A stretch of 64,000 nt of DNA, from NCBI GenBank assembly GCA_963822545.1, contig CAWGIB010000006.1:565428-629427 (forward strand), in the 5' to 3' direction. This DNA comes from an uncultured Acidobacteriaceae bacterium (GTDB taxonomy: Bacteria; Acidobacteriota; Terriglobia; Terriglobales; Acidobacteriaceae). The notes beneath the pieces were generated by a model. That model saw nothing but the letters and a program-made list of their open reading frames with translations. It was not told the origin of the DNA and made no database searches. A program made the translations under genes and the position numbers. This document shows positions 18,749-33,869 of this stretch, piece by piece; positions within the stretch are counted from its first letter, which is position 1, and the number at the start of each line of letters is the position of its first letter.

Positions 18749-19072
18749 GTCAAATTTTAGATTTTCAACGTCCGGGCTTTGCGACCCTAAACGCTCGGGA
18801 AGGTTATTGGCGACGATGACAGCGAGGACTTCGTGCCACGGGATCATGAGGGCGGGGCGTTCGGCGGGGGCGTTGGGGAGATCGATATCAGTATCGAGTT
18901 CGATCCAGAGGCCGCGTAGGTCGGAGTCGTCGAGGACGCGGGCGAGGAGGGTGTGACTGTCGTCAGCGGTCTCCGCTGAAGGGCGATCGCCGAGGAACAT
19001 TTGAATGGCCTGCAAGTTGGCCCAGGACTTTCTGACAACCACCGCAGTCAAGGCATTCATCTTGAGCCGCAT
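18728..19072 (-). CDS. hypothetical protein (weak call)
   Basis: An ORF of 114 aa with no recognisable motifs. Its 3' end runs into the tandem repeat. Confidence 0.3.
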   Translation of the reverse strand: MRLKMNALTAVVVRKSWANLQAIQMFLGDRPSAETADDSHTLLARVLDDSDLRGLWIELDTDIDLPNAPAERPALMIPWHEVLAVIVANNLPERLGSQSPDVENLKFDLATLKL

Positions 19073-19433
19073 GGATCAAGGCTACTGGCGGGTAGCGGAG
19101 CGGGCGGTGACTTGGATCACGGGCGGGGGTGAGCGCGGGAGCACGATAGTTTGGTTGGGGTTGTTACCAGCTCCCATGTCAGGCACTTATTTCCGCGCGA
19201 AACAGCCGCATTAGTTCGTCGGCAAAGTCTTTTTCGGCCTTCCAGCCAGCCATCAATGTTTCCGGTGCCCATAGGAGGCTCCGACTTCCCAGTACCAATC
19301 AGGGTCGATGAGTGACCCGGCGATTTCGCACTCGTCGCGCTTGTCGTAGCGAGCCAACTGGAATCAGTGAACAGAAATCAGGGATCGCAAAATTCACGCT
19401 TGACATTGCCGGATAATCCACTACCATACGGTT

Positions 19434-19772
19434 GTGGATAAATTAGGTACGACGTTTGCGGCCTTGTCGGACCCAACCCGGCGGGCAATGATCGAGCGGC
19501 TCTCCCATGGGCCTGCCTCCGTGCATGGATTGACGGAACCGTTTGCACTTTCGCAGCAGATGATTTCAAAACATATTGCCTACCTGGTGCGGGCGCGGAT
19601 TGTGATCAAGACGAAGCGTGGGCGAGAGAGTGTGTGCACGCTCAGGCCAGCGGCGATCAAGAAGGTCAGCGACTGGGCGATTAGCTATCGCCGGTTCTGG
19701 GAAGAGAGTTTCGACAAGCTGGATGTAGTTCTGAAAGAAATGAAACGAACGGAGGTCAGAGATGACAAATAA
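19434..19772 (+). CDS. ArsR/SmtB family transcriptional regulator
   Basis: FAALSDPTRRAMIERLSHGPASVHGLTEPFALSQQMISKHIAYLVRARIV is an HTH_20-type motif. Confidence 0.85.
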   Translation: MDKLGTTFAALSDPTRRAMIERLSHGPASVHGLTEPFALSQQMISKHIAYLVRARIVIKTKRGRESVCTLRPAAIKKVSDWAISYRRFWEESFDKLDVVLKEMKRTEVRDDK

Positions 19773-20271
19773 CACGGTGAACGAGACAGAGCGGATGGTT
19801 GTGACAAGAGTTTTTGATGCCCCACGCGAACTGGTTTGGAAGGCGTGGACAGACCCGAAGTACGTGATGCAGTGGTGGGGGCCGAAGGGCTTTACTGCGC
19901 CCGTTTGCAAAATGGATTTTCGCGTGGGGGGGAAATCCCTCTTCTGCATGAAGACGCCGGATGGGCAGGAGTTCTGGAATGCGGTTGAATACCACGAGAT
20001 TGTTCCCCAGGAAAAGATCGTTTCCTTGATGTACTTTTCGGACTCGAAGGGAAACAAGATCGATCCCGCGCAATTAGGAATAGAACATGAGGCCATCGAC
20101 GGTGCGTACGACGTGACGATCTTTGAGGATCTCGGAAACGGCCGGACCAAACTCACCTTCATTGGAAATGAACCCATGGAGAGCGCGAAAAATAGCGGTC
20201 AAATGGAGGGCTGGAACCAGATACTCGATAAAGTTGCTGAGGTTGTTACGAAGCTAGCGCAGGCGAAATAA
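19762..20271 (+). CDS. SRPBCC/AHSA1 (Activator of Hsp90 ATPase homolog 1-like) protein
   Basis: VVTRVFDAPRELVWKAWTDPKYVMQWWGPKGFT. Overlaps the arsR stop by 11 nt, the classic ArsR-AHSA1 pairing. Confidence 0.85.
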   Translation: MTNNTVNETERMVVTRVFDAPRELVWKAWTDPKYVMQWWGPKGFTAPVCKMDFRVGGKSLFCMKTPDGQEFWNAVEYHEIVPQEKIVSLMYFSDSKGNKIDPAQLGIEHEAIDGAYDVTIFEDLGNGRTKLTFIGNEPMESAKNSGQMEGWNQILDKVAEVVTKLAQAK

Positions 20272-20311
20272 GAAGTCGGAGTTGTTCAGGGGTAGTCCAG
20301 CGGCGGAGAGA

Positions 20312-20347
20312 CCCACACATCACAAAGTGCGTGATGTGTGGGGCACC
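20312..20347 (+). repeat. GGGGCACC-hairpin family, copy 1
   Basis: CCCACACATCAC-aaagtgc-GTGATGTGTGGG followed by GCACC. Confidence 0.7.
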
Positions 20348-20377
20348 GGCAAAGAGGGCACCCGCAGGAGCGACAAA

Positions 20378-20875
20378 GTGACGCGGTCAACCAATCAATC
20401 AAAGAAGCGTGTAGCCAGCCGCAAGGGTAAGGAAAATGCCGAAGGCAAGACCCCGGCGAAGCTGCTCGTCGCCATGACTGGCAAGGCAAGCGCGGCGAAG
20501 TCCGCAACGGGCGACGAACCCGTGTTCGCGTACATCGCCAGCTTGCCGCAGCCCCAGCGCGGCATCGCCGAGCGCATCGATGTCCTGGCGGCCAAGAGTT
20601 TGCCGGACATTCAGCGAGCGGTGAAGTGGGGCATGGCGTACTACGGGGTCGACGGGGGCTGGTGCTTCTCATCCGGCGCCTTCGTCGGCCATGTGAAACT
20701 GATGTTCATACGGGGCACGGCGATCAAGCCGGAACCGCCTGTGACGCCGATCGGGATGGGCAAATCCACCCGCGGAGTCGAGTTAGCTTCGGTTGACGAT
20801 TTCGACGAGCGCCAATTGGCGTCATGGATGAAGCAGGCCGCCACCATGCCCTTCGTTGGCGGAAAGAAGCGATGA
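20378..20875 (+). CDS. DUF1801 (YdhG-like) domain protein
   Basis: The GTG at 20378 is preceded by AGGAG at 20366-20370. The upstream part of ORF 20282 is hairpin-repeat sequence. Motifs IASLPQPQRGIAERIDVL...VKWGMAYYG..GGWCFS...FVGHVKLMF. Confidence 0.7.
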   Translation: MTRSTNQSKKRVASRKGKENAEGKTPAKLLVAMTGKASAAKSATGDEPVFAYIASLPQPQRGIAERIDVLAAKSLPDIQRAVKWGMAYYGVDGGWCFSSGAFVGHVKLMFIRGTAIKPEPPVTPIGMGKSTRGVELASVDDFDERQLASWMKQAATMPFVGGKKR

Positions 20876-21000
20876 CTACTCCGTGGCGCAGTGTTCGTCT
20901 TGAACCGGCGCGCAGTATAGAAAGACTCTCTTCTCTTGACGGAATGGCGGGTGGCCCAGCCTTGGGGAGGCTTTTGGTTTTCGCCTGCATCTCCCAGGCG

Positions 21001-21037
21001 AGGGTGCCCCATCCTTCGCGCACTTTGCGAAGGGTGG
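21001..21037 (-). repeat. GGGGCACC-hairpin family, copy 2 (inverted)
   Basis: GGGTGCCCCATCCTTCGCG-cactt-TGCGAAGGGTGGG. Confidence 0.7.
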
Positions 21038-21269
21038 GAACCACGGACGCATATACAGCGGGTTTCGTGCGGAAGGATAAAAGGTTGTATCGGCAGCATC
21101 GCCGCCCACCCCTTCGGCAAGCTCGGGGCAGGCTCTTGCAAATGGTGCAATGCAAAGATGGGCCACCCGCCGAAATAAGAAGTTAGAGTTTCGATGATTG
21201 TCATGCGGCGAGGGCCCACTGCTCGATCAAACGGAAAACTTTCGAAAGGAAGACTTAATTTTAAACCTT

Positions 21270-21304
21270 GGGTGCCCCATCTTTCGCGGTGTTCGAAAGG
21301 TGGG
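21270..21304 (-). repeat. GGGGCACC-hairpin family, copy 3 (inverted)
   Basis: GGGTGCCCCATCTTTCG-cggtgt-TCGAAAGGTGGG. Confidence 0.7.
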
Positions 21305-21361
21305 ATCTCCTCGAAGGGCAAACCTTTCCTCGTGGTTTTGAAAGCGGTGATCGTGGCTGAT

Positions 21362-21397
21362 CCCCGCATCTCGAAAAGCGCGAGATGTGGGGCACCC
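21362..21397 (+). repeat. GGGGCACC-hairpin family, copy 4
   Basis: CCCCGCATCTCG-aaaagcg-CGAGATGTGGGG followed by CACCC. Confidence 0.7.
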
Positions 21398-21504
21398 CAA
21401 GATAGAATCACCCACGAAATGGGGCACTGAAGTGGGCCACCCGCCGAAATAAGAAGGTGGAGTTTTAATTGATCGTCGGGCGCGAGGTCTGAAATTAAAG
21501 ACCT

Positions 21505-21569
21505 GGGACAGACGGGACGTTCGCCAATTTCTATTCGTCGACAAACTGGGGAACGTCCCGTCTGTCCCC
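21505..21569. repeat. long inverted-repeat element, copy 1 (perfect 18-bp arms)
   Basis: GGGACAGACGGGACGTTC (21505-21522), a 28-nt loop, then GAACGTCCCGTCTGTCCC(C) (21551-21569), followed by ATATTTCAGGTTTCCC. Confidence 0.8.
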
Positions 21570-21697
21570 ATATTTCAGGTTTCCCTGACCCCCTAGCCCC
21601 GAACACATTGGTGTCAACGCTGACTCACTGGTCTGGAATAGCTTAGTAAATTGCACGCGCGTACAAACGCACCCATGCACCCAAAATGATGAAACCG

Positions 21698-22873
21698 TCA
21701 GCTGTAGAGTAACGACAGCATATTCGCCCGGTCCATCTTTAGCGTATCGACAGACATCTCGGTCGTTTTGTGGTGCTTGATTCGCACGGAGACTCTCGCT
21801 TCCGCCTTGCACTCAAGCATTTTCACCACTTGCTCGGTCCGTTGGTGTTCCGGTTCTGGCTCAGTAAGTAATCGGTTGACATTGGACAGATAGGGAACAT
21901 TTTGAAGGCGTGCGGTAAAAGCATTCTGCGAGGGTGTTTTTCCTCCCCATCCCGAACCAAACCCTCCCGACTGAAATAAGGACGCATAAGCATTCGGCTG
22001 CTGTGGCGGAGATGGAGTCCTGAGGAATTTAAACGTCAGCTGAAGATCGAGTTCGGCAAATTGCGCGTCGCCGGACACTTCGTACAACTTGCCTGTCTTT
22101 ACCTCAAACTCCTTGATCGAAAGCGCACTGATCATATCCCTGGTTGCTCGACTCAGTTCTCGCGCCGCTCGATCAATCAGTTCGCGTTCGATGCTCTGTA
22201 TTTCAAAATGCGTTTGAGCCCACTTGTCTGTAACCTCGATAGGAGTCGGTGCGTGAGCTTTGAGAAAATCCTGAATGGACCGGTAGATGTGCAGCTTTCC
22301 GTTCTTGGTTTTCAAATCGCGATCGATGTCTGGGTGAATTGCGTCATCCGCCCAAAAGCCGCCGTCGCCAGAAACGAATACCACCTCGGTTTCCGCCTTA
22401 TCAGAATACGCAAGTGTCCACAACCAGAGGATTACATCGCGAAGTTCTTCTCCATTGTCGTTCGCAGGCCTCGTCCGGTGGATACCTCGCATGAAGGCTT
22501 CTTGAAGAAAATCTCCTGTTATTTCATCGAAGTAAATCGGAGCGACCCCGTCGGCTGGTTTCATTAGCTTCCTTCTGAGTTGTATCATCGCGGACTTGCC
22601 ATCAGGTTTTTGGAAGTGTAGAACGTCGCTCTCCAGATCGAGGTGGTGATATTTCCGACAGGCATCCTCGAAGGCCTTGGCACCTGTCTTCAGACGGCGA
22701 CCATAGTCGATCACCACCTCCTCGCGTACGACACGCGGCAGCACCAATCGCGATTCAGTCCGGCGCATGTACTCAAATAGGCTTTGGAAAGCCACGCCGT
22801 TCATCCTGTAATCAGCAGCGTAGATGTTAGAGTCGAGGATAATGTGCATGGTGAACGAGGGGCTTTTAACCAC
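21698..22873 (-). CDS. PIN-like domain protein B (DUF4935/PIN_12-like by motif) with unknown ~190-aa C-terminal domain
   Basis: The acidic/PIN pattern is ILDSNIY..., LPRVVREEV, GEELRDVILWLWTL, VVFVSGDGGFW. The C-terminal half has no recognisable motif. GTG start at 22873 (alternative ATG at 22849). AT-rich relative to neighbours. Confidence 0.7.
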   Translation of the reverse strand: MVKSPSFTMHIILDSNIYAADYRMNGVAFQSLFEYMRRTESRLVLPRVVREEVVIDYGRRLKTGAKAFEDACRKYHHLDLESDVLHFQKPDGKSAMIQLRRKLMKPADGVAPIYFDEITGDFLQEAFMRGIHRTRPANDNGEELRDVILWLWTLAYSDKAETEVVFVSGDGGFWADDAIHPDIDRDLKTKNGKLHIYRSIQDFLKAHAPTPIEVTDKWAQTHFEIQSIERELIDRAARELSRATRDMISALSIKEFEVKTGKLYEVSGDAQFAELDLQLTFKFLRTPSPPQQPNAYASLFQSGGFGSGWGGKTPSQNAFTARLQNVPYLSNVNRLLTEPEPEHQRTEQVVKMLECKAEARVSVRIKHHKTTEMSVDTLKMDRANMLSLLYS

Positions 22874-22911
22874 GCGACTTGGCGCTCATTCTTCTTGCTA
22901 ACTGCGGAGCT

Positions 22912-24039
22912 TTACGTATCCTTGTCCTTTTCGTCTTGGTCTCTTTCATCCCCATCTTTTTTCTCTTCCTTGGATGTTGGACGTGGCGAAGCCTGAGCGC
23001 TAGCGAGAGCCGCAAGAGTGTTCAATTTTGACTCGTCCAAGTTAATACTGCGGAGATAGTTGTTGATTCTGGTGTTGAGATCTGCCTGGTCAAGATTGAT
23101 GCTGCGGACATAGTTGCTAATTTTGTCAAGACTTGATTGGTCGACATTGATACCGCCGAGATAGCTATTGATTCTGTTGCTGAGAGTTGAAGGGTCCCAA
23201 TCGACGCTCTGGAGATATTTATCATATATGTCGAGATTGGAAGGGAACTTGGCCGCAGCGAGGCTTGACAACGCAATATTTGAAGTAGATACGAGATCTT
23301 TTTCCGCTTCTTCTTCCTTTTTTGACACCGGGACATCAAATGACTTGAGAGCCTCCGACAAACGTGTGTATAAGGTCAACTTCCGCGACTGACTTACTCG
23401 GTCGCTGAACTCGTGGCGCAGCTCATCGTTGATATAGGACCTTTTACCTATCGTGACACCATAGTCTGAATCTCGTGAAACAATCACGAGCCCAGCCTTC
23501 TTCTTCGCCGCACAGCGAATCATCCATTCCCAATTGAACGCATCTCCGTACGAGGTGTCACCCGCTTTTCTCGGAGGGCAGCCATGCATAAATCTTCTCA
23601 TCGCGGCGCGTCTCACGATGCGTCTGGTAATGTCATTTCGAGTTAGCGCCAGATCGTCAATTTTCTGAAAAATGCGCTGACAGACCTGATATACCGGATC
23701 GTTTTGTGCCGGATTATCCAATGCTTTGATGAGGCGTTCGCGCAGCTTCTTTACTCGCTTCTCAGCCTCCTCAAGGTGGCGGTCAATGATCTGCGTAGCC
23801 TTCACGTTCGAGAAGATCCCCGGACGGGATAGTTGAGATGGCTCCTTCAACGCACTCATACCATCGACGATCGCGGCCTGGCGATTCTTCTTGAATTCAC
23901 TTTCGAGTTGAAACGTTACGATGATGCGATCGGCGATCTGTTCAGTACGTTCGAGCAGCTGCAGGCCCGTCTCGTTCTTGGCTCTATAAAAATCGAGCCA
24001 GATATTGGTATCGATAAATAGCAGATTAGGAAGCGCCAT
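22912..24039 (-). CDS. PIN-like domain protein A with C-terminal 17-18-aa tandem repeats and acidic tail
   Basis: LLFIDTNIWLDFYR, VTFQLESEFKKNR, PPRKAGDTSYGDAFNWEWMIRCAAKKKAGLVIVSRDSDYG (the 'GD...GD..W...VS.D.D' pattern I associate with PIN_8-type PIN-like domains). Followed by the repeats (R/K)I(N/S).Y(L/V)..IN(L/V)D...L(N/D) and the tail KEEKKDGDERDQDEKDKDT. Confidence 0.7.
   Translation of the reverse strand: MALPNLLFIDTNIWLDFYRAKNETGLQLLERTEQIADRIIVTFQLESEFKKNRQAAIVDGMSALKEPSQLSRPGIFSNVKATQIIDRHLEEAEKRVKKLRERLIKALDNPAQNDPVYQVCQRIFQKIDDLALTRNDITRRIVRRAAMRRFMHGCPPRKAGDTSYGDAFNWEWMIRCAAKKKAGLVIVSRDSDYGVTIGKRSYINDELRHEFSDRVSQSRKLTLYTRLSEALKSFDVPVSKKEEEAEKDLVSTSNIALSSLAAAKFPSNLDIYDKYLQSVDWDPSTLSNRINSYLGGINVDQSSLDKISNYVRSINLDQADLNTRINNYLRSINLDESKLNTLAALASAQASPRPTSKEEKKDGDERDQDEKDKDT
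23020..23240 (-). repeat. in-frame tandem coding repeat (about 51-54 nt unit, 3 clear plus 1 degenerate copies)
   Basis: Peptides DIYDKYLQSVDWDPSTLS / NRINSYLGGINVDQSSLD / KISNYVRSINLDQADLN / TRINNYLRSINLDESKLN. Confidence 0.7.
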
Positions 24040-24337
24040 ACTAAGTACCTACGGCGCACATTATACAGTCCGACAAACTCTTGCTTTGATTTTTCTCGGA
24101 TGCTTTTCGTTGGACGATGTCAGGTCGAAAGCAATCCTCTACGGTGCACCGACGATAGTCATCTACCAGTGGCCTACGACGAGGAAAGTAGTCTGCTCGT
24201 ATGAACAAATCGGCGAAGAAAGGTTAGTTTCACCTATCCGCGATGATCGACCTTGACACTTTCGATCCAAGAAAGTATTTCCCAGCCAAGATGGACGGGC
24301 ACTGTGCCCGATTGCGGTTGCTCTCCATCAAATCACA

Positions 24338-24381
24338 GGAAATGTGGGGACACGCGGAACTGCCCCCAATTCTTCTGTCCC
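24338..24381. repeat. long inverted-repeat element, copy 2 (degenerate)
   Basis: GGAAATGTGGGGACACGCGGAACTGCCCCCAATTCTTCTGTCCCC. Collinear with GAAATGTGGGGACAGACGGGACG...CCATCCCCAATTTTTC at 29221-29300. Confidence 0.55.
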
Positions 24382-24413
24382 CGAATTGTTCCGATTTGAT
24401 TCCCGCCGTGAAC

Positions 24414-24734
24414 CTATTCATCCAATGAGAATCCGCCCGGCAAAGCTGCCTCAAGATTGATTTGTTCTCCGGTGATGGGGTGTTGGAAATTCAGAAATTG
24501 GGCGTGCAGGAAATATCCTCCATCGCCCGGGAGGCCGGGGAGATTTTCAAGGGGCTGGCCGGATAAAACCGTACAGAGGATCGCCTACCAGCGGATGGCC
24601 GATGGATGCCAGATGGATTCTGATTTGATGAGGGCGTCCCGAATCCAGGCTTACCTCACATGTTGTGGTGCTGCGGTGCGTGAGATCACTTTTGCCAATG
24701 ACTTTGACGGTTTGCCACTCGGGTTGGCGGCCCA
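24414..24734 (-). pseudogene. duplicated 3' fragment of the RluA-family pseudouridine synthase gene (copy of 29342-29755)
   Basis: Near-identical nucleotide stretch. Encodes WAANPSGKPSKSLAKVISR..STTTCEVSLDSGRPHQIRIHLASIGHPLVGDPLYG..YFLHAQFLNFQHPITGEQINLEAALPGGFSLDE* across at least 2 frames. There is no 5' part. Confidence 0.85.
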
Positions 24735-24803
24735 TAAAAGACCGGGGACAGTCCCGGTTTTCCCCCAGCTTTGCAAAACCACAAGGTGTCGGCAGTGTGA
24801 AGG

Positions 24804-24838
24804 CCCACTTCTCGAAAAGCGCGAGAAGTGGGGCACCC
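24804..24838 (+). repeat. GGGGCACC-hairpin family, copy 5
   Basis: CCCACTTCTCG-aaaagcg-CGAGAAGTGGG followed by GCACCC. Confidence 0.7.
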
Positions 24839-24946
24839 TCAGCTAATATTCAGTCGGCAATCAAGACGTCATAATCGGTTCCGAGAAGTGGGCCAGCCGT
24901 CCTGTCACGGCCTTTCCGGGTCGAGGAGGCAGACCTCCCAGTTCAG

Positions 24947-25549
24947 TTACTGCTGCTTCTTGAACAAATCCTGGAAGATGAGCTGACCCCAAGTGCGGCC
25001 GCGTGCGTGCACCAGCGCGCCACCCTCGTTGAGCTTTCCCAGCTTGACGGGTGCGAACCCGAGTTGTTTGGCCAAATCCGCCACGGGAGTGATCGCGTCC
25101 TCGTCGTCGCTCGACAGAAAGACGACCCGGTGGCCCCCTTCGACGATCGGATCCGTAGCCAAAATGGCTGCACCCAGGTGATTGAAAGCTTTCACGAGTT
25201 TGGCACCGATGAAAGACCTCGCAACGAACGCGGAGGACGGGAGACTGTCCAATTCCTCAGGTGGGACTGGAAACGAGTTCATCGCGTCGATGACCGTCTT
25301 GCCTTTCCAACTCGGCAGGGCCTTCGCAACTTCGCGATGTTCCCCGAACGGGACCGCCAGGATGATGGTGTCGGCCTCAAGTGCATCCCGCAGCGACTTG
25401 GCGACGACGGTGGATCCAATCGCCCGAGCCTGCGGCGCCAACGCCTCAGGCGGCTTGCGACTCGCAACGGTTACGTCGATGTTTTTACGGGCAAACGCGT
25501 GGGCGAGAGCCTGGCCTATCTTTCCGAATCCTACAATTGCGTAGCTCAT
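24947..25549 (-). CDS. NADP oxidoreductase, F420-dependent-type (NpdG/ProC-like Rossmann) protein
   Basis: MSYAIVGFGKIGQALAHAFARKNIDVTVASR; ...IILAVPF. The ATG at 25549 is chosen over the longer ORF. Confidence 0.7.
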   Translation of the reverse strand: MSYAIVGFGKIGQALAHAFARKNIDVTVASRKPPEALAPQARAIGSTVVAKSLRDALEADTIILAVPFGEHREVAKALPSWKGKTVIDAMNSFPVPPEELDSLPSSAFVARSFIGAKLVKAFNHLGAAILATDPIVEGGHRVVFLSSDDEDAITPVADLAKQLGFAPVKLGKLNEGGALVHARGRTWGQLIFQDLFKKQQ

Positions 25550-25701
25550 AATGTTTCTCCGATCCGTGTTGATATTGATTCCCAGCCTTCGACGGCGCGG
25601 GACATCAAATTCTGTTCTGTGGCGACCTTCCGTAAACGTCCCGCGGTAAATCACTTTTGCTGGCCACCGGAAGGTCAGCCGCTAGCAGAGGTCTGCAAAC
25701 G

Positions 25702-26436
25702 TCAGATGGCCGTCATGCCGCCGTCGACATTCAACTCCACCCCGTTCACGAAGCTGGAATCGTCGGAAGCAAGAAACAGCGCGACCGTCGCGATTTCCTC
25801 AGGTTGACCCATCTTTCCCCGCGGGATCAGGGATTCGAACATCTCCTTCGCTTCCTTGGTGAGAACTTCTTCCTGCATCGGTGTGGCGATCGGCCCCGGC
25901 CCCAGCACGTTCACCCGGATATTTCTGCCCTTCAGTTCGTTGAGCCACGTGCGAGCAAAGGAGCGCAATGCTGCCTTGCTCGCCGCATACACGCCGAAAC
26001 CAGGAAAACCTTTCACCGAAGCAACGGATCCGGTCATGATTATCGATCCGCCATTGTTGAACAGCGGCAACGCCTTCTGAACCGTAAACAGCGTTCCGCG
26101 CGTATTCAGGCCGAAGGTCGCATCGAAGTGCTGCTCGGTAATCTCGCCCAGTGGTAAGGCCTCGCCCCTGCCAGCGCTCGCGAACAGGACGTCGATCTTG
26201 CCCTTTTCCCGCTTGACCGTATCGAACAGACGGTCGAGGTCGTCGAGATTGGCCGCGTCACCGCGCACGCCGGTCACGTTTCGGCCAATCAGCTTGACGG
26301 CCTCATCGAGCTGCTCCTGCCTCCTACCCGTGATGAAAACGTAGGCGCCTTCTTCAACGAAGCGCTTGGCGCTCGCCAGCGCCATGCCGCTCGATCCACC
26401 CGTGATGACTGCAACTTTTCCTTCAAGCTTTCCCAT
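25702..26436 (-). CDS. short-chain dehydrogenase/reductase (SDR)
   Basis: KVAVITGGSSGMALA (TGxxxG), NNGG, YAASKAA (YxxxK), and a PGPIATP motif. The ATG at 26436 is chosen; the 426-aa ORF is over-extended. Confidence 0.9.
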   Translation of the reverse strand: MGKLEGKVAVITGGSSGMALASAKRFVEEGAYVFITGRRQEQLDEAVKLIGRNVTGVRGDAANLDDLDRLFDTVKREKGKIDVLFASAGRGEALPLGEITEQHFDATFGLNTRGTLFTVQKALPLFNNGGSIIMTGSVASVKGFPGFGVYAASKAALRSFARTWLNELKGRNIRVNVLGPGPIATPMQEEVLTKEAKEMFESLIPRGKMGQPEEIATVALFLASDDSSFVNGVELNVDGGMTAI

Positions 26437-26557
26437 AATTGCTCCCTTCGGTAGATGCGTAACATTCGGTACAGTAGAGTAGAGTTCTTTGGCGGTGGAC
26501 GAGAACTGCTCAGGAGTCCTAATATTTTGTCCATTCGTCCAAACGAGAGAGGCTAAG

Positions 26558-27601
26558 TTGGATCCGATAACAGACATCTTCAGAACGATGCACGTAACCG
26601 CTTTCGGTCTGCACAGGCTCGAAGCCACAGCCCCGTGGGGCATAAAACAGGAAAACCAGACCGAAGAAAAAGTCACGCCTTCCGACAAAAAGATGTCACC
26701 CACAGATTTGGCGCACTTCGCCATGCTTTCGCGCGGCAACTGCTGGCTGAGTGTGGAAGGGATTGCGGAGCCGATTCCCCTCACCGGTGGTGATTGCTTT
26801 TTACTGGCTAAGGGGACTTCGATTGTTTTGCGCGACAGCCCGCGAACACGTCCGAGGTGGAGCTTCCGCGAGATCGGGGCCAAGGCCAACGGCAATGTCG
26901 CTCTTTGTGGCGGCGGTGGCGCACCGACGACAATCGTCTGTGGATCCTTGAGTTTCGATCGCGCCAGCCTGAGGCCGATCACTCAGTTATTGCCGAACTT
27001 CATTTTGATGAAGGCCGATCAGGCACGCACGCTTGCTCTTCACACCACAGTGCAGGCGCTCGCGTCAGAGATGGCAGAACAGGCGCCGGGATCTGAAGTC
27101 GTCGCGAGTCGGCTGGCCGAGGTTCTGTTTATCCAGGTACTCCGGGCGCATATCGCGTCGGGACCGGAACGCAACAAAGGATGGCTTCGTGCAATTTTCG
27201 ATCCTCAAATAGGCGCTGCTCTGAGTGCCATTCACGACAGAGTGAATACACCCTGGACGGTCGAATCCCTGGCTGAAGCGGCGGGCATGTCTCGCTCCGC
27301 ATTCGCAGCACGTTTCAAAGAGCTACTCGGACAAACACCACTGGAATATGTAACCGAGTGGCGGATGCAGAAGGCGATGCAGTTACTACAACAGCGTGAC
27401 AAAAAGCTCATAGACGTCGCTCGGTCGGTCGGTTACGAGTCCGACGCCGCATTCAGTAAGGCGTTCAAGCGAGTTGTCGGGGCCAATCCTGGTGAATACC
27501 TCAGACGTGGTTTTGAAGGATCCAAAATCGACCGAAGCAGACCACGATCAGCATTAGGCTTACCTTCTCTCAAAGTCTCCAGCTTTGCCGGCCCGCCGTG
27601 A
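26558..27601 (+). CDS. AraC family transcriptional regulator with N-terminal cupin-type sensor domain
   Basis: (L)DPITDIFRTMHVTAF is an AraC_N/cupin_6-like start. C-terminal HTH WTVESLAEAAGMSRSAFAARFKELLGQTPLEYVTEWRMQKAMQLL....IDVARSVGYESDAAFSKAFKR. The TTG start at 26558 is inferred. Confidence 0.8.
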   Translation: MDPITDIFRTMHVTAFGLHRLEATAPWGIKQENQTEEKVTPSDKKMSPTDLAHFAMLSRGNCWLSVEGIAEPIPLTGGDCFLLAKGTSIVLRDSPRTRPRWSFREIGAKANGNVALCGGGGAPTTIVCGSLSFDRASLRPITQLLPNFILMKADQARTLALHTTVQALASEMAEQAPGSEVVASRLAEVLFIQVLRAHIASGPERNKGWLRAIFDPQIGAALSAIHDRVNTPWTVESLAEAAGMSRSAFAARFKELLGQTPLEYVTEWRMQKAMQLLQQRDKKLIDVARSVGYESDAAFSKAFKRVVGANPGEYLRRGFEGSKIDRSRPRSALGLPSLKVSSFAGPP

Positions 27602-27622
27602 CACCAGAAAAGTAGACAGAAG

Positions 27623-28306
27623 CTAGTGTCGCTTTGAGGCATTCGAACGGCCGGATCGCTTAGCGATTGCTCTCTTCGGCAATCGCGGAACAGCCTTAAC
27701 GCCCGCCCAAAGGGTTGCGATCGTTTGCTCGACCACGAGAGTCTGGTCAGGCAAGTCAGGCACAACCCCTTGGATGACCATGAGTGTGGCGAGACCAAAG
27801 ATCGTAAACCACCAGGTATGGGCTATCACGATGTCATCCCTGTTTGGCAATCCTTCTTCCTTAGCAACATCGAAAAAGAGCTGCACGAAACGTCCGAACA
27901 ACGGCGCGCCAATGTCATTGATATATTGTCCAGCTCGGACGCCGTTGCGGTTCTCAGGCCCGAAGAAGACGTTGCGGAACTGCTGTGGATGGGCAATGCA
28001 GAATTGAATCAATCCGCGCGAGGTCGCAAAAAGGCGCTCTTTCGGTGCGAGATATTTAGCGGCAATCGCGTCGAAGTTCTGAATCATCAGCCCGATCGTC
28101 TCGCGGCTCAACTCGGCAAGAATGTGTGATTTGTCCGGAAAATGCTGGTAGATCACGGCATGCGTGTAACCGATTTCTTTAGCGATCTCACGAAGCGTCA
28201 CGGCTTCGTAACCGCGATCGGCGAACAATTTACCTGCAGCCGCAAGGATTTCGCCCCGCAACCTCTCCTTGCGCTCTACCCGGCGACTTGGTGATGTGGA
28301 TGTCAC
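27623..28306 (-). CDS. TetR family transcriptional regulator
   Basis: RKERLRGEILAAAGKLFADRGYEAVTLREIAKEIGYTHAVIYQHFPDK. The GTG at 28306 is chosen because the longer ORF would run through the operator palindromes. Confidence 0.8.
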   Translation of the reverse strand: MTSTSPSRRVERKERLRGEILAAAGKLFADRGYEAVTLREIAKEIGYTHAVIYQHFPDKSHILAELSRETIGLMIQNFDAIAAKYLAPKERLFATSRGLIQFCIAHPQQFRNVFFGPENRNGVRAGQYINDIGAPLFGRFVQLFFDVAKEEGLPNRDDIVIAHTWWFTIFGLATLMVIQGVVPDLPDQTLVVEQTIATLWAGVKAVPRLPKRAIAKRSGRSNASKRH

Positions 28307-28357
28307 TTTCAATAGCTTAGTCCATTTTGATGATTGTTGCGACCGAGTGTTACTTTC

Positions 28358-28402
28358 TAACCATTGGTTATGTAACCAATGATTATTTTGCAACCAATGG
28401 TT
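28358..28402. promoter_or_regulatory. candidate TetR operator cluster in the divergent intergenic region
   Basis: A perfect 13-bp palindrome TAACCATTGGTTA (28358-28370), plus AACCAATGATT and AACCAATGGTT (28392-28402). It sits between the tetR gene and the 28472 gene. Confidence 0.5.
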
Positions 28403-28471
28403 TGTACGAGCCTCTAATAGTCAGGTCGCTCATTTGGATAGGCGGCCAAATACGAGGCAAAGGAGAATGCG

Positions 28472-29098
28472 ATGAAAGTTCTAGTGATTGGAGCAGCGGG
28501 CAAGAGCGGAGAAGCGCTGGTAAATGAGGCACTGGCGGCCGGGCATAAGGTGACGGCTTTCGTGCGCGGTGCCGCGCAGTACAAGAAGGCGAATGTCAGA
28601 GTTGTTGCGGGCGACGTGCTGGACGCAGCCGCGGTCGACGTTGCGGTCGCCGGACAGGACGCGGTGATCGACGCGCTGGGCGGCAAGACGCCGTGGAAAG
28701 TGACGACGATGGAAACGAGCGCGGCACACAATATTGTGGACGCGATGCGGCGCAATGGCGTGCGGCGATTGCTGAAGATTTCGGTAGTTGGTGCGGGCGA
28801 GAGTGTCAGGAACGCCGGTTTTTTCAACGAGCACCTGCTGATGAGGACGTTTCTGCGGGGTCTGCTGGTCGACAAGGCGGGCATGGAGGCCGAGATCGAA
28901 GGCAGCAAGCTGGACTGGACGCTGGTGCGGCCGCCGATGTTGACCGACGGCGAGAAGACCGGCATTGCCAGGGTGCTGAGCACGGAAAGCGGCGAGAAGG
29001 CGCACAAGATCGGGCGGGCCGATCTGGCAGCCTTCATGGTTCAGCAACTGGAAAGCAGCCGGTATGTGCGTCAGGCTGTGACAGTGACGACCACATAG
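28472..29098 (+). CDS. NAD(P)H-binding (atypical SDR / NmrA- or flavin-reductase-like) protein
   Basis: MKVLVIGAAGKSGEALVNEALAAGHKVTAFVR. AAGGAGAA SD present. Confidence 0.8.
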   Translation: MKVLVIGAAGKSGEALVNEALAAGHKVTAFVRGAAQYKKANVRVVAGDVLDAAAVDVAVAGQDAVIDALGGKTPWKVTTMETSAAHNIVDAMRRNGVRRLLKISVVGAGESVRNAGFFNEHLLMRTFLRGLLVDKAGMEAEIEGSKLDWTLVRPPMLTDGEKTGIARVLSTESGEKAHKIGRADLAAFMVQQLESSRYVRQAVTVTTT

Positions 29099-29183
29099 CA
29101 AGGCCCCCGCGAGGATCAACCACCTCTCTCATCGAGGCGATCCGATCGGCTGTGTAAAGGCCTGTAACGATTCATGCGACAGA

Positions 29184-29293
29184 TGAAATGTGGTGAAATG
29201 TGGGGACATGAAATGTGGGTGAAATGTGGGGACAGACGGGACGTTCACTAGTTTCCATTTGTTGAAAGACTCGGAAACGTTCCGTCCATCCCC
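29184..29293. repeat. 4x GAAATGTGG tandem motif fused to long inverted-repeat element, copy 3
   Basis: GAAATGTGG at 29184, 29194, 29210 and 29221. Arms GGGGACAGACGGGACGTTC (29228-29246) and AACGTTCCGTCCATCCCC (about 29276-29293), followed by AATTTTTCAGGTTTTC. Confidence 0.75.
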
Positions 29294-29341
29294 AATTTTT
29301 CAGGTTTTCAACGGCCACCCTGATTAATTCCCGCCATGAAT

Positions 29342-30358
29342 CTACTGCTGCAATGAAAATCCCGACGGCAGAGCTGCCTCAAGATTGATTTGTTCTCCGG
29401 TGATGGGGTGGTGGAAATTCAGAAATCGGGCGTGCAGAAAATATCCGCCATCGCCCGGGAGGCCGGGGAGATTTTCAAGAGGCTGGCCGGATAAACCGTA
29501 CAGAGGATCGCCTACCAGCGGATGGCCGATGGATGCCAGATGGATTCTGATTTGATGAGGGCGGCCCGAATTTAGGCTTACCTCAAATGTTGTGGTGCCT
29601 GGTGTGCAGGGTGACGCTGTGCTGCTTGCTTGCCGGGCTTGCCCGCTATCACAAAACGCGGGCACAACTGGACACAAAGACGCCGTGCTGCCTGGCGCCC
29701 GTGAGATCACCTTCGCCAATGACTTTGACGGTTTGCCACTCGGGTTGGCGGCCCACACCATGCCGATGCGCGGGTGCGGTACAAGTCCGATGGGTGTGAG
29801 GATTTCGTAGGCGTCGTGCTGTGCCATGTTTTGAGCCAGCGCCCAATAGATTTTTTGAATTCTGGGTGTGTTCCAGTCCGCGCCTAGTTTAGCGGCGGCC
29901 TGCGCTGTTTTGGCGAAGAGAACGATGCCGGTTGTGCCTCGGCCTAACCGGTGGACCGGGTTTGCGTTGGGGGTTTGCTTTTGCACCAGGCGCAGTAGCG
30001 TGTTTTCCATGAAGCCGCCGCCGGGGAGAGTGGGCAGTCCGCCAGGTTTGTTGACGGCCAACAGGTGGTGATCTTCAAACAGGATTTCGAAGTGTTGAGG
30101 AGATTCTGGTTCGATCCAGGGTGGACGGTTCCAGACAAGTGTTTGGCCTACGGTAACCGATTCGCTTCCGGTGGCGGTCATGCCGTTGAGGGCGACTTCG
30201 CCGTTGTTCAGATTTTGTTGCCAGGCTTCTGGAGTTGAGTGGGGGTAAAGGCTTGCCAAATGGGAGAGCAGGGTTTGCCCATGATGTTTGCCGCTGATGA
30301 TGGTGGTGTAGGCGTAGCCCCGGTTGAGCATGTGGTTTGAGTGTAAGCCATGGTGCAT
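29342..30358 (-). CDS. RluA-family pseudouridine synthase carrying a 31-aa in-frame insertion
   Basis: HHLLAVNKPGGLPT, HRLGRGTTGIVLFAKT (catalytic Asp region variant), SGRPHQIRIHLASIGHPLVGDPLYG. The insertion APGSTASLCPVVPAFCDSGQARQASSTASPCTPG is absent from the duplicated fragment at 24414-24734. Confidence 0.85.
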   Translation of the reverse strand: MHHGLHSNHMLNRGYAYTTIISGKHHGQTLLSHLASLYPHSTPEAWQQNLNNGEVALNGMTATGSESVTVGQTLVWNRPPWIEPESPQHFEILFEDHHLLAVNKPGGLPTLPGGGFMENTLLRLVQKQTPNANPVHRLGRGTTGIVLFAKTAQAAAKLGADWNTPRIQKIYWALAQNMAQHDAYEILTPIGLVPHPRIGMVWAANPSGKPSKSLAKVISRAPGSTASLCPVVPAFCDSGQARQASSTASPCTPGTTTFEVSLNSGRPHQIRIHLASIGHPLVGDPLYGLSGQPLENLPGLPGDGGYFLHARFLNFHHPITGEQINLEAALPSGFSLQQ

Positions 30359-30368
30359 CGATCCTCTG

Positions 30369-30445
30369 TTTCGTTTGGGATGACAATTGTTTAGGGGTCA
30401 GTGGTGGAGACTGCGGATCCCTCACTTCGTTCGGGATGACAATCC
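30369..30445 (+). repeat. two copies of the 'RFAQDD'-type short repeat
   Basis: TTTCGTTTGGGATGACAATT (30369-30388) and GGATCCCTCACTTCGTTCGGGATGACAATCC (30415-30445). A related copy GATCCTTCGCTTCGCTCAGGATGAGAATG lies at 58791-58819. Confidence 0.6.
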
Positions 30446-30461
30446 GTAGTGCGGCGCAATC

Positions 30462-30499
30462 GCACTCATTCACAAAAAGCGCGAATGAGTTGGGCACCC
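30462..30499 (+). repeat. GGGGCACC-hairpin family, copy 6
   Basis: GCACTCATTC-acaaaaagcgc-GAATGAGTTGGGCACCC. Confidence 0.65.
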
Positions 30500-30556
30500 G
30501 GCAGGATTGTGAAAATTGCGAGATTTCGTTAACGAGAACTTAGAATGCGCCCTTAT

Positions 30557-30871
30557 TTACGGACGATTCTCACGACGTGCTTGGGGTAGGACGACGAAAA
30601 TGGCTACAAGGACAAGACATATGCCAGTTGCCGTCATCATGTCATAACGCAGGAAATTTACCCATGCGAACTCCCTGCCGTTGAGATAAACGACACCCAT
30701 CTTGGACCACCCTGCGCGGTAAACCCTTCCCATCATCGGCTGAGGTAGGCGAGGCATCACGGCCTCGTAGTAGCATGCGGTCACTGTGTCGGCCACGAAA
30801 TAGAAACATCCCACAATGCAAAATAGACCTGTAAAAACTTTCCGAGCCGTAATTTGTAATCCTGGGCGCAT
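30557..30871 (-). CDS. small two-TM membrane protein, hypothetical
   Basis: Hydrophobic segments FTGLFCIVGCFYFVADTV and ATGICLVLVAIFVVL. Confidence 0.5.
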   Translation of the reverse strand: MRPGLQITARKVFTGLFCIVGCFYFVADTVTACYYEAVMPRLPQPMMGRVYRAGWSKMGVVYLNGREFAWVNFLRYDMMTATGICLVLVAIFVVLPQARRENRP

Positions 30872-31025
30872 ACTTCCAGCGTCATAAGCTTACTTAAAAT
30901 GCTCCTGACGCGCACGACGATAGGCCACATAACGGACCTGCAGAGATTACTGTTGTAACATCGCCTTTACAGTCAGGACGCGGTCAATGAATGTAATTGT
31001 TGATTTCGATGGGAGTAGTGATCGT

Positions 31026-33869
31026 TTACGCGTTCCCGCTGGCGGCTGTCGTGCGAGGTTTTTCCTTGTCGATCACGTCCCTCAGCGTCCGGGTCAAGTC
31101 CGAGAGGGAGAAAGGTTTTTGCAAGAAGGCTTCGCCTTCGTTCAGTGTTCTTGCCTGCACGGAACTGTCATGGGTGTAGCCGGAAATGTAGAGCACCTTC
31201 AGTTGCGGCAACCGGGTAATTAATCTGTCGGCTAACTCGCGGCCATCCATACCGGGCATCATGATATCGGTGATGAGGGCGTGAACTGGTATGTTCTGTT
31301 TGCCAACCAGGTCCAAAGCGGCAGTGCCGCTTTCACATGGAACGATGTTGTAGCCTAAACCTTTTAACATCTCGGCTATCAAAGATCGGAGATTCGCATC
31401 GTCTTCCACTAACAAGACGGTTTCGGAGCCCCTGGTTGACTCGATTGGAGGTTGAGCCACGAGGCGCGCGGCGGCTGTTGATCTGAGAGGTAAGTAGATC
31501 TTAAAAGTTGTTCCGACCGCAGGTTCGCTATAAACCCAGATGTAACCTTCGGATTGTTTGACAATCCCATAGACAATGGACAGACCGAGCCCGGTCCCTC
31601 TTCCGAGGTCCTTGGTCGTAAAAAACGGTTCGAAGAGACGGGACATCGTGTCCTGGTCCATTCCGAATCCTGTATCCGAAATCGATAACAGCACATAGCG
31701 GCCAGGCACTACCGGCTTGTGGTGAAGGGCATAGGAGTCATCCAAATTGCATACGGACGATTCGATGGTGAGTTTACCGCCCTCAGGCATGGCGTCGCGG
31801 GAATTCACAGCCAGGTTCATGATGACCTGTTCGATTTGCCCTGGATCCACTTTGACTCGAGATTCGGAACAAGAGAACTTGAGGGAGAGTTCAATATCGT
31901 CTCCGATCAGCCGGCGCAGCATATTGGCCAGATGGCTGACAACTTCATTGAGTTCTACCACGCGGGGCTGGATGATCTGCTTGCGGCTGAAAGCCAATAA
32001 CTGCTGGGTCAGCGCGGCAGCCCTTTTCGACGCAATGTGAATTTCCTCTGAATAATGCAAAGACTTTTCATCCAGGTTATCCCGGAGCTTGAGCAGTTCG
32101 CTGTAGCCGCTGATAACACCCAGCATGTTGTTAAAGTCGTGGGCTACACCGCCGGCGAGTCGTCCGATCGCCTCCATTTTTTGTGCCTGCTGTAATTGTT
32201 TCTGAAGAGTTTTTCGTTCCGTGACATCCTGCTTGATGGCGATGAAGTACTTGTTAATGCCCTCGTTCGCAGACATAGGGGTGATGGTCATTTCTTCCGT
32301 ATAGTCCGTCCCGTCTTTTCGACGGTTGACCATCTCGCCTTGCCAAACCTGCCCAGAAGAAACTGTCTTCCACATTTCCGCGTAATAACTGTCAGGTTGC
32401 TGCCCAGATTTCAAGAGGCGTGGATTTTTCCCGACTACTTCTTCACGGCTATACCCAGTGAGGGTGGTAAATGCGGGATTGGCCCAAATGACTGTGCCAT
32501 CGTTTTTTGTGATGAGGATGGCATTGGCGGCAGCCTCGAGGGCGGCTGATTGCAACTGCGATTGCTCTTCGGCTCTTTTGCGGAGAGTGATGTCACGGGC
32601 GATAGCGGAGGCCCCGACAATTTGTCCCATCGCGTCCTTTATTGGTGAAATTGAAACAGAAACATCGACCAGTTTGCCTTGCTTGGTCAGGCGCTGGGTC
32701 TCCATATTTTCGATTGCCTGACCACTCTGGATGCGCTCAATGATAGCGTCGAGTTCGGCGCGCCGTTCGGGGGGCAAAAGAATCGAAACATGCTGCCCGA
32801 GTGCTTCGGTTGCGGAGTACCCGTACATTCTCTCGGCTGCCGGGTTCCAACTGGTAAGGATGCCCTGAAGGTTTTTGGCGATGATGGCATCCTGAGAAAG
32901 CTCCACGATGGATGAGAGCAGTTCCTTCGCTTCTTCAGCTTTCTTTCGGCCGGTGATGTCGGAAAGAAGACCCGTGATGAGGCGCACACCACCAGCCTCA
33001 ATGGAGGCAGAGGCGCGGTCGTGAGCCCAGAACCATTCTCCATTTTTCTTTTGTGCCCTGCATTCAAGATCGTAGGATGTCCCATCTCGAACGAGCGCTT
33101 CAAATGCCTCCTTCACCTTCTTCTTGTCGCCCGCGTGGACTGAATTGAACCAGATGGAATCTCCATGCTCGTAGAACTCAGACGCAGAATAGCCGAGGAC
33201 TGTTTCGATCTGGTCACTCACGAAGATGACGTTGCCTTGGCCATCGGTTTTCCAGACAACCTCTGGGATGCTGGAAATCAGCGCGCGATACTTCTCTTCG
33301 CTCACGCGCAACGATTGCTCTGCAGCGCGGCGTTTCCGCAAGTCGAGCGCGAGTCCGAGCATCGCAACCCGATCGTTAAGAACGATACGAGCACCCGTCA
33401 GGAGACACGGGATCTCGGTTCCGTCTTTTGCGACAACGACAGATTCAAATTTGGCCGCTCCGTCGACGAATGTCGCGGCAATTGCGTTGGCCGCATTGTT
33501 TCGCTCGCGCTCGGCGACTGTTTCAAGCAAGTTAATGCCGGCAACTTCCTGATCGGTGTAGCCGAGCGTGGTTGCAAGGTTCGAATTCCAATGGATCAAC
33601 CCGCCCTTGTCGTCGGTCATACAAGCCATCTCGGGCAGGTGATGGATGAGCTCGGCGGTGAGCTTTTCCCGTTCAACTTTCTCTGAGTGAAAATACCTGA
33701 GGTTCATCAAGAAAATAACGAAGCCGCAAAGGAGCACTGCCAGAACATGCGGGTGGCGAACCGAGAACGACGGAAGGGCAACCAGCGTGAAGGCCTCAAC
33801 CCCCGTCGCAAGAATTAAAGCAATTGCGGCCCAACGAAGTGCCTTGGTTAGAACTAGACGTTTATCCAA
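31026..33869 (-). CDS. hybrid sensor histidine kinase (TM, multiple PAS, HisKA, HATPase_c, receiver)
   Basis: At least 4 PAS-like modules (for example ITGRKKAEE, ARDITLRKRAEE, KQDVTERK junctions). H-box GGVAHDFNNMLGVI, N-box LAVNSRDAMPEGG, G-box GTGLGLSIVYGIV. Receiver VLLVEDDANLR...DIMMPGMDG. TTG start. Confidence 0.9.
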   Translation of the reverse strand: MDKRLVLTKALRWAAIALILATGVEAFTLVALPSFSVRHPHVLAVLLCGFVIFLMNLRYFHSEKVEREKLTAELIHHLPEMACMTDDKGGLIHWNSNLATTLGYTDQEVAGINLLETVAERERNNAANAIAATFVDGAAKFESVVVAKDGTEIPCLLTGARIVLNDRVAMLGLALDLRKRRAAEQSLRVSEEKYRALISSIPEVVWKTDGQGNVIFVSDQIETVLGYSASEFYEHGDSIWFNSVHAGDKKKVKEAFEALVRDGTSYDLECRAQKKNGEWFWAHDRASASIEAGGVRLITGLLSDITGRKKAEEAKELLSSIVELSQDAIIAKNLQGILTSWNPAAERMYGYSATEALGQHVSILLPPERRAELDAIIERIQSGQAIENMETQRLTKQGKLVDVSVSISPIKDAMGQIVGASAIARDITLRKRAEEQSQLQSAALEAAANAILITKNDGTVIWANPAFTTLTGYSREEVVGKNPRLLKSGQQPDSYYAEMWKTVSSGQVWQGEMVNRRKDGTDYTEEMTITPMSANEGINKYFIAIKQDVTERKTLQKQLQQAQKMEAIGRLAGGVAHDFNNMLGVISGYSELLKLRDNLDEKSLHYSEEIHIASKRAAALTQQLLAFSRKQIIQPRVVELNEVVSHLANMLRRLIGDDIELSLKFSCSESRVKVDPGQIEQVIMNLAVNSRDAMPEGGKLTIESSVCNLDDSYALHHKPVVPGRYVLLSISDTGFGMDQDTMSRLFEPFFTTKDLGRGTGLGLSIVYGIVKQSEGYIWVYSEPAVGTTFKIYLPLRSTAAARLVAQPPIESTRGSETVLLVEDDANLRSLIAEMLKGLGYNIVPCESGTAALDLVGKQNIPVHALITDIMMPGMDGRELADRLITRLPQLKVLYISGYTHDSSVQARTLNEGEAFLQKPFSLSDLTRTLRDVIDKEKPRTTAASGNA

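Follow-up and report, generated by a model that had tools for sequence, protein, structure and literature searches.

A stretch of 64,000 nt from the genome of an uncultured Acidobacteriaceae bacterium (GenBank assembly GCA_963822545.1, contig CAWGIB010000006.1, positions 565,428 to 629,427), referred to here as the window, contains an intact RluD-like gene and, 4.6 kb downstream of it, a second, partial copy of the 3′-end of that gene in the same orientation. The RluD-like gene is called rluA below. The left and right copies are designated L and R, and all coordinates are positions in the window. Between the copies lie five genes for redox proteins and regulators, which form two modules, A and B, and together are called the cassette. 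An earlier note, made from the sequence alone, had named the same five genes, and the Pfam assignments agree.

24414-24734, minus strand: L, a pseudogene remnant of a different rluA allele, 5′-truncated so that it extends from codon W229 to the stop, with a short linker and two frameshifts (alignments).
24947-25549, minus strand: F420-type NADP oxidoreductase, module A (Pfam F420_oxidored).
25702-26430, minus strand: short-chain dehydrogenase/reductase (SDR), module A (Pfam).
26489-27601, plus strand: Cupin_6/AraC regulator, module A (Pfam).
27623-28393, minus strand: TetR regulator, module B (Pfam).
28472-29098, plus strand: NmrA-like NAD(P)H-binding protein, module B (Pfam NAD_binding_10/NmrA).
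29342-30358, minus strand: R, the intact RluD-like gene of 338 codons, with an S4 domain and PseudoU_synth_2 (PF00849) (Pfam).
29629-29679: 51-nt in-frame filler in the Ser/Thr linker of R, an antisense copy of the genome's own DUF202 gene (BLAST).

The direct, collinear repeat was resolved by repeat search and MAFFT alignment into three parts, with 90% identity between 24396-24567 and 29324-29495, and 96% identity both between 24566-24671 and 29493-29598 and between 24679-24734 and 29700-29755. Either copy matches only its partner in the 5.46-Mb assembly (BLAST, E = 1e-110), and there is no third copy. The repeat is real and far beyond chance. It had been described in the earlier note as near identity of 24338-24734 to 29221-29755. 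Collinearity at 90-96% identity holds for 24396-24734 against 29324-29755, but the inverted-repeat parts, 24338-24395 and 29185-29323, are only loosely alike, being members of the same family of repetitive extragenic palindromic (REP) hairpins. The similarity is not limited to these short elements and extends through the coding 3′-end, as had been proposed, covering the final ~103 codons of the RluD-like gene.

L is made up of 19 codons (WAANPSGKPSKSLAKVISR), a short linker and the final 84 codons, with the stop codon at 24414-24416. It contains two frameshifts, a −1 shift in the linker, judged against the short-linker allele of genome G286, and an additional T (+1, TTTT vs TTT) within 24561-24576, after DPLYG. 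The 94 nt of R that are missing from L consist of ~43 nt of extra Ser/Thr-linker sequence and the 51-nt filler. A diversity-generating retroelement, with a template and variable repeat (TR/VR) pair at the 3′-end of a gene, does not fit these copies. No reverse transcriptase (RT) domain was found among the ORFs (Pfam), and the differences between L and R (18 in the 255-nt part) are of all types, without a bias toward adenine.

The differences between L and R were polarised using 19 orthologues from the genus and 78 distant ones. The 57-nt part has 3 differences, all synonymous, and the 18 in the 255-nt part are distributed 5, 3 and 10 over the codon positions. Eight of these 21 substitutions are polymorphisms for which both states are common among orthologues, 4 are found only in R and are all synonymous, and 9 are found only in L (6 in the 255-nt part and 3 in the 57-nt part). 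L is ~93% identical to R and likewise ~93% identical to the orthologues of other species, and its closest match is the short-linker gene of G286 (94% identity, ungapped). Because a duplicate formed in situ could not gain states that segregate among functional orthologues, L is a piece of another allele and not an in-situ duplicate of R. L has since decayed, with two frameshifts and ~3% unique changes. These results bear out the geometry seen in the earlier note, that of a gene 3′-end replaced by incoming DNA with the old end left behind and frameshifted. The 5′ third of the window's rluA was also compared with L, but every segment is nearest to the same common allele group and its affinity is therefore uninformative.

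Tandem duplication in situ across the 3′-end of rluA, followed by divergence and turnover of the cargo, would be a most implausible source of the repeat. Local tandem duplications do exist in relatives (302 nt at 97% identity in G285). However, 8 of the sites that separate L from R are shared polymorphisms, L is as distant from R as from the genes of other species, neither the cassette nor the nearby block of PIN nuclease genes is present in a second copy, and the boundaries differ in every species.

Conspecific metagenome contigs with a backbone 98-100% identical to the window were recovered by exact-protein look-ups, and three haplotypes occur among the conspecifics, that of the window and two others, designated H2 and H3. 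H2 (contigs L183-185) has the order DUF488, a SnoaL_2 pseudogene, the F420 oxidoreductase, SDR, AraC, TetR and NmrA genes, a REP element and an rluA gene that includes the 51-nt filler. Beyond rluA it continues with 326 nt unrelated to the window and then a histidine kinase gene. H2 has neither L nor the PIN genes nor the REP2 element described below, and to the left of the F420 oxidoreductase gene it retains the native SnoaL_2 continuation of module A. H3 (contig L199) has a histidine kinase gene and the same 104-aa ORF as the window, followed by an rluA gene that shares the window's 5′ third but has another 3′ allele and no filler. A beta-propeller gene, ChrA, a REP cluster, a 240-nt remnant of the 3′-end of an AHSA1 gene and the AraC end of module A follow. 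The features of the window that are relevant to this comparison are as follows.

30010-30150: interval of a homologous crossover inside rluA; the left side is H2 and the right side is H3.
30444-31007: segment upstream of rluA that varies between strains; H3 has it too, and H2 has the unrelated 326 nt in its place.
30557-30871, minus strand: 104-aa ORF in the strain-variable segment.

In a difference map against L183 and L199, 0-2 positions per 50-nt bin separate the window from H2 between 29350 and ~30050, and 0-1 per bin separate it from H3 between ~30050 and 31050. An identity profile gives 100% identity to H2 over 28400-30000. As the match is to H2 on the left and to H3 on the right, the rluA gene of the window combines H2 and H3 sequence through a single homologous crossover at ~30010-30150, inside rluA and ~300 nt upstream of 29755, where the repeat ends.

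Since L has two frameshifts and R and the cassette have no difference from H2 in 1.6 kb, the displacement of L is probably older than the arrival, or the last exchange, of the cassette. The earlier note had linked the displacement of L to the arrival of the present cassette. This link probably does not hold, and L would have been displaced by other DNA than the present cassette, as R and the cassette are identical to the sister strain over 28400-30000 while L is already frameshifted, and the sister strain has the cassette without L.

The left end of the cassette is separated from L by a junction segment, and hairpin elements are associated with both copies of the repeat.

21505-21569: REP copy 1, the perfect copy, with perfect arms of 18 bp (DNA fold -30.8 kcal/mol, z = -7.1).
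24338-24395: REP copy 2, degenerate, with ~25 nt of the conserved sequence that follows the rluA stop, both attached to L.
24735-24946: junction segment of 212 nt, composed of a terminator-like hairpin (24740-24761), the REP2 element (24788-24898) and then 45 nt.
29185-29308: REP copy 3, degraded, directly downstream of R, with a tail that is a 4x expansion of GAAATGTGG.

Homology to rluA breaks off abruptly at 24734|24735, and homology to H2 begins exactly at the stop codon of the F420 oxidoreductase gene, at 24947. The 212 nt between these points match neither rluA nor the sister strain, nor module A in any other genome. REP copy 1 is 81% identical to copy 3, and elements of its type adjoin an ArsR-AHSA1 gene pair in G021 and G273 and the rluA stop codon in G013, G018 and G004. 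Copy 3 has 89% identity to the REP downstream of rluA in G013. The predicted fold of copy 2 is not significant (z = -0.9), and an Rfam search of 19000-31500 matched no family.

Elements resembling REP2 are present at rluA loci of relatives. In G016 (L102, G016:C8:86000-105900), three copies of a 1.55-kb unit, 99-100% identical, are found within 20 kb around rluA, and each consists of a REP2-like element and an IS110-family transposase (DEDD_Tnp_IS110 and Transposase_20). In G004 (L104), a transposase-like ORF homologous to that of G016 is located directly beside the REP that follows rluA. REP2 might be the non-coding end or the target of this IS110-type insertion sequence. The tandemly duplicated 302-nt unit of G285 (L141 10733-11334, 97% identity) comprises the last 97 nt of rluA, flanking sequence and REP2, and the duplication joins the REP2 end (GGGCCACCCGC) to a similar motif within rluA.

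The region to the left of L ends in a second conserved unit, the ArsR-AHSA1 gene pair, which faces rluA across the variable DNA.

19434-19772, plus strand: ArsR-family regulator, left anchor (Pfam HTH_5/HTH_20).
19762-20271, plus strand: AHSA1/SRPBCC protein, left anchor (Pfam AHSA1).
21698-24039, minus strand: two adjacent PIN_12 nuclease genes in a block of low GC content (0.49-0.51), distal to L (Pfam, GC profile).

The ArsR-AHSA1 pair is 88-96% identical at the nucleotide level in at least 12 species of the genus. The rluA gene is accessory, being present in 10 of 24 same-genus genomes, and where present it is almost always convergent with the ArsR-AHSA1 pair at a distance of 1.7-9 kb. The intervening DNA is specific to each species, and in relatives it includes IS110 copies, an ImmA-like gene, and genes for a lectin-like protein, a Ser/Thr kinase, GH127 and an NmrA-like protein. 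Across species the anchors (19369-20283 and 29342-30353) are 85-96% identical, compared with 70-81% for neighbouring genes, which implies that these accessory genes have recently flowed across the genus. Anchors that stand out in this way from the DNA around them therefore provide homology for a variety of donors. Synteny is not conserved beyond the anchors, and the greB-like gene that adjoins rluA in G008 is located on contig C3 in the present genome. The 80 distant rluA loci have only a greB-like gene upstream in common, with no conserved mobility gene and no 3′ remnant within 10 kb. The two PIN genes are absent from this locus in all relatives and sister strains, and among ~120 species of the genus none has PIN genes linked to rluA or to ArsR-AHSA1. 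Homologues in G284, G327 and G020 (77-84% nucleotide identity) are unlinked to rluA.

In H3, the segment at L199 14111-14790 (ENA ERZ28533575 NODE_16147) carries the 240-nt AHSA1 remnant, which corresponds to window 20044-20283 (92.5% identity) and is separated by 67 nt from the AraC end of module A (window 27143-27518, 97.9%), where the contig ends. This remnant mirrors L at the opposite anchor. Two further candidates were set aside. The span from ArsR-AHSA1 to rluA was dropped as a single mobile unit, its left boundary being fuzzy with conservation at the level of a promoter. Scattered fragments of the AHSA1 3′-end in the window (CGAAATAAGAAG at 21171 and 21445) were judged to be chance matches, because they are only 12-13 nt long (E = 0.04-0.14) and fall inside a REP-type consensus.

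L is not the only displaced end of this gene. 5′-truncated remnants of the rluA 3′-end are found in at least 6 other species of the genus, in the following settings.

G016: remnant fused to the initial 22 nt of an IS110 ORF.
G011: remnant directly after a GH127 stop codon.
G285 and G273: remnants that abut the REP2 end.
G010: remnant without any full gene.
G275: remnant 5′-truncated at sense position 566.
G013, contig C5: two nested remnants at a different locus.

The remnants start at sense positions ~566, 885, 958-960, 1011, 1049-1059 and 1094, and there is one 45-nt piece. There are at least 7 distinct breakpoints, with unrelated cargo and differing junction partners, nor is the cargo always located at the same point relative to the REP. 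The varied breakpoints and cargo positions exclude a fixed attachment (att) site. The locus is a recombination hot spot, at the level of both strain and genus, between two convergent conserved accessory units.

The earlier note had interpreted the repeat as the trace of a site-specific integrative element, decayed or mobilised in trans. On this reading, a 4.6-kb cassette would have used the rluA 3′-end as att, with an integrase since lost or acting in trans. Direct repeats do bracket the insert and one of them completes the target gene, so that the cargo includes a replacement gene end as in phages at the 3′-end of icd, and modules A and B do adjoin tyrosine-recombinase or IS91-type genes in G237, G142, L187 and L189. 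Outside this locus, however, the modules are not flanked by repeats. The absence of a visible integrase or recombinase, already remarked on in that note, was confirmed. Whole-genome searches with PF00589, PF00239 and PF01548 placed no tyrosine recombinase, serine recombinase or IS110 transposase in the window, and Pfam scans detected no recombinase among the ORFs between 21698 and 30871. The nearest tyrosine recombinase is 48 kb away (C6:643878-645341). The region from ArsR-AHSA1 to rluA in seven fully annotated relatives is also free of integrases, including in tblastn searches with the genome's own integrases. An empty site, for which the note had suggested a comparison with related genomes, was not encountered, as in no genome and no contig does the sequence left of 24338 come after rluA. 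Neither a recombinase at an element end nor a fixed att core was found, at least 7 remnant breakpoints exist with an insertion position that varies relative to the REP, the R end of the block was attached through a homologous crossover 300 nt outside the repeat, and the sister strain has the cassette without a second repeat. A site-specific integrative island is thus considered very unlikely.

The cassette itself is widely shared. Module A (24947-27551) is 85-96% identical at the nucleotide level in other genera and in several same-genus genomes, and module B (27610-29193) is 91-93% identical in G237, G086, G145, G140, G269 and G012. At least 16 metagenome contigs, with unrelated contexts, encode a protein identical to the 244-aa SDR of the sister strain, and in those designated L186-L195 the gene is often located beside tyrosine recombinases (Phage_integrase) and IS91-type Y2 transposases, HigB toxins or RT genes. 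Elsewhere module A usually runs AraC, SDR, F420 oxidoreductase and SnoaL_2, and the last of these is missing in the window. In L188 and L193, modules A and B are linked but in a different gene order. Repeats bracketing modules A or B in other genomes were looked for and none was found. On these matches, the cassette is horizontally circulating DNA that is foreign to the recipient.

The explanation that is moderately favoured here is that foreign DNA has been swapped repeatedly into a strain-variable hot spot by homology-anchored illegitimate recombination, a sequential displacement similar to homology-facilitated illegitimate recombination (HFIR). One crossover in the conserved rluA gene would anchor the incoming DNA, and the opposite end would be joined illegitimately. 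With each event the 3′ part of rluA would be renewed, and its previous end, truncated at an arbitrary position, would move downstream. An older event would have made the 24734|24735 junction and left L, and only the hairpin, REP2 and 45 nt (24735-24946) of that older insert would survive. A recent event would have brought in ~5.1 kb from a conspecific H2-like strain, comprising the 3′ two-thirds of rluA, the REP, the TetR-NmrA module and the AraC-SDR-F420 module, with the crossover at ~30010-30150 and a non-homologous join at 24946|24947, at the F420 oxidoreductase stop codon. This specific two-step order is less certain than the general explanation. Both the order and the number of events are inferred, as is the role of illegitimate or end-joining recombination in making the non-homologous joins. 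The genome encodes Ku and, with the DUF202 filler as a second, templated illegitimate insertion, is plausibly capable of such joins.

Three properties expected of HFIR are seen at this locus. A homologous crossover (30010-30150) lies in the conserved anchor beside the insert, the displaced remnant is from a different lineage than the replacing copy, to judge from the shared polymorphisms and identities, and the inserted DNA is foreign, as shown by its matches in other genera and the recurrence of the SDR.

A homologous crossover within rluA would also be produced by Campbell-type integration, in which a circularised donor fragment, made up of the rluA 3′ part, the REP and the cargo, entered through a single RecA crossover in rluA and duplicated the 3′ part. 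The final geometry would be the same as for HFIR, and Ku could circularise the fragment. However, this crossover would have to lie inside the duplicated homology, which ends at 29755, and that at ~30010-30150 is upstream of it. L should also be a chimera of donor and recipient, of which there is no sign, and the route is rarer than the integration of linear DNA. Integration by this route is therefore quite unlikely.

L might alternatively have arrived as a passenger. An imported segment from another genome of the genus, containing ArsR-AHSA1, the PIN genes, the short REP, the truncated remnant and the hairpin/REP2 block would then have been joined illegitimately to a resident H2-like cassette at or near the F420 oxidoreductase stop codon, and the crossover at ~30050 would be an unrelated allelic exchange. 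The left junction of the cassette does look derived, as H2 has the cassette and R without L and keeps SnoaL_2, and the sister strain is explained equally well. L is also far more decayed than R and the cassette are diverged from H2, the PIN block is low in GC, and composite segments that bear remnants exist at other loci (for example G013 contig C5). Such an import nevertheless seems unlikely, since it requires an additional, unobserved donor that already carried such a remnant and a separate event for the H2/H3 mosaic in rluA. Its right side would have no homologous anchor, and the PIN genes are never linked to rluA or ArsR-AHSA1 among the ~120 species.

Several observations weigh against repeated HFIR-like displacement or complicate it. 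No source was found for the 212 nt at 24735-24946. Module A is internally mosaic relative to H2, with 80-96% identity over 25100-25600, and the actual donor therefore differed from the sampled H2 contig. The predicted recipient haplotype, with an intact rluA of the L allele followed by the short REP and the PIN genes, was not found. Exact-protein look-ups for R, the F420 oxidoreductase, AHSA1 and PIN-B (two start choices) found nothing, and that for PIN-A returned only a 2.5-kb contig that is identical to the window and ends inside L. Two exact-pattern scans of metagenome contigs, one for the L-PIN spacer and one for the filler junction, were empty. The evidence for the order of events is relative decay and nothing else, and ongoing gene conversion between strains could blur that order.

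An extension of the favoured explanation is that rluA with its downstream REP is a targeted landing pad and not merely a passive anchor. Hairpin-directed breakage could provide a route, as could an unrecognised trans-acting recombinase that targets REPs, either of the IS110 type as in G016 and G004 or RAYT-like. Such targeting, if true, would explain both the recurrence of rluA remnants across the genus and the fact that several junctions abut REP-type elements, but it is regarded as very doubtful.

The filler in R matches C2:1517365-1517417 of the same genome, within a gene for a DUF202/YidH-like membrane protein on contig C2, with 94% identity across the 53-nt BLAST match. The orthologous DUF202 segments in 20 same-genus genomes are only 71-80% identical to this source, and the filler was therefore copied within this lineage. 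It is a templated illegitimate insertion. The motif HRLGRGTTG, at about residues 135-143 of R, corresponds to HRLDK(E/D)T(S/T)G in aligned RluD structures and has Gly at the position of the catalytic Asp. This Gly is kept in all aligned homologues, and roughly 500 relatives of R were found at about 80% amino acid identity. R is assigned to the RluD fold family (PF00849) but its pseudouridine-synthase activity is doubtful, and from the alignments the RluD-like proteins with this Asp-to-Gly change look like a widespread, catalytically dead family in Acidobacteriota. A tmRNA gene with the tag peptide ANQQMAYAA is located elsewhere in the window, at 44846-45214 on the plus strand.

HFIR, a term defined in PMC3240628, has been described in bacteria undergoing transformation (Acinetobacter baylyi, Streptococcus pneumoniae and Pseudomonas stutzeri) and in E. 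coli during conjugation (PMC3240628; references in PMC5361080). Its illegitimate joins typically fall at microhomology. There, as proposed here, a homologous anchor crossover is combined with an illegitimate join without a dedicated recombinase, and foreign DNA is gained with the loss of a short stretch of the recipient beside the anchor. Those cases were seen experimentally, whereas the present one is deduced from natural haplotypes of an uncultured acidobacterium with a donor that was apparently conspecific. HFIR has also been proposed to account for orphan 3′ fragments and arrays of immunity genes at type VI secretion system (T6SS) and Rhs loci (PMC5361080). In the arrays of T6SS effector and immunity genes, Rhs and contact-dependent inhibition (CDI) genes, a conserved 5′ anchor likewise receives new 3′-ends that displace the old ones downstream, and remnants recur (PMC5361080). 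The 3′-ends of those genes are hypervariable toxin tips kept with immunity genes under selection (PMC5361080), whereas the displaced end of rluA is conserved, without evident function and decaying, and the cargo consists of redox and regulator genes.

Two other known situations are comparable in part. Integrase-mediated prophages and islands can enter a protein-coding gene at its 3′-end and supply a replacement for that end, as e14 and phage 21 do at icd in E. coli. A partial 3′ copy forms a direct repeat around the insert and the gene is kept intact, as in the window, but the rluA locus has no integrase and no fixed att core, its breakpoints vary and its homologous crossover is outside the repeat. 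Hot spots of horizontal gene transfer have conserved flanking genes, with turnover by homologous recombination in the flanks. The locus described here similarly has two conserved flanks, ArsR-AHSA1 and rluA, and a cargo that varies between species and between conspecific strains. Unlike hot spots in general, its flanks are accessory (~45% of species) and more conserved in nucleotide sequence than the genome around them, and one of them has repeatedly left truncated copies.

The process is of a known type and reveals no new mechanism. It provides a natural example of cargo exchange between strains of uncultured soil Acidobacteriaceae without mobile-element machinery, in which a conserved accessory gene would serve as a portable homology anchor and old gene ends would accumulate as scars. 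A direct repeat of a gene end that lacks an integrase is thus not automatically a decayed integrative island. The mapped crossover and the three coexisting haplotypes may be used for studies of gene flow in an abundant and genetically intractable phylum.

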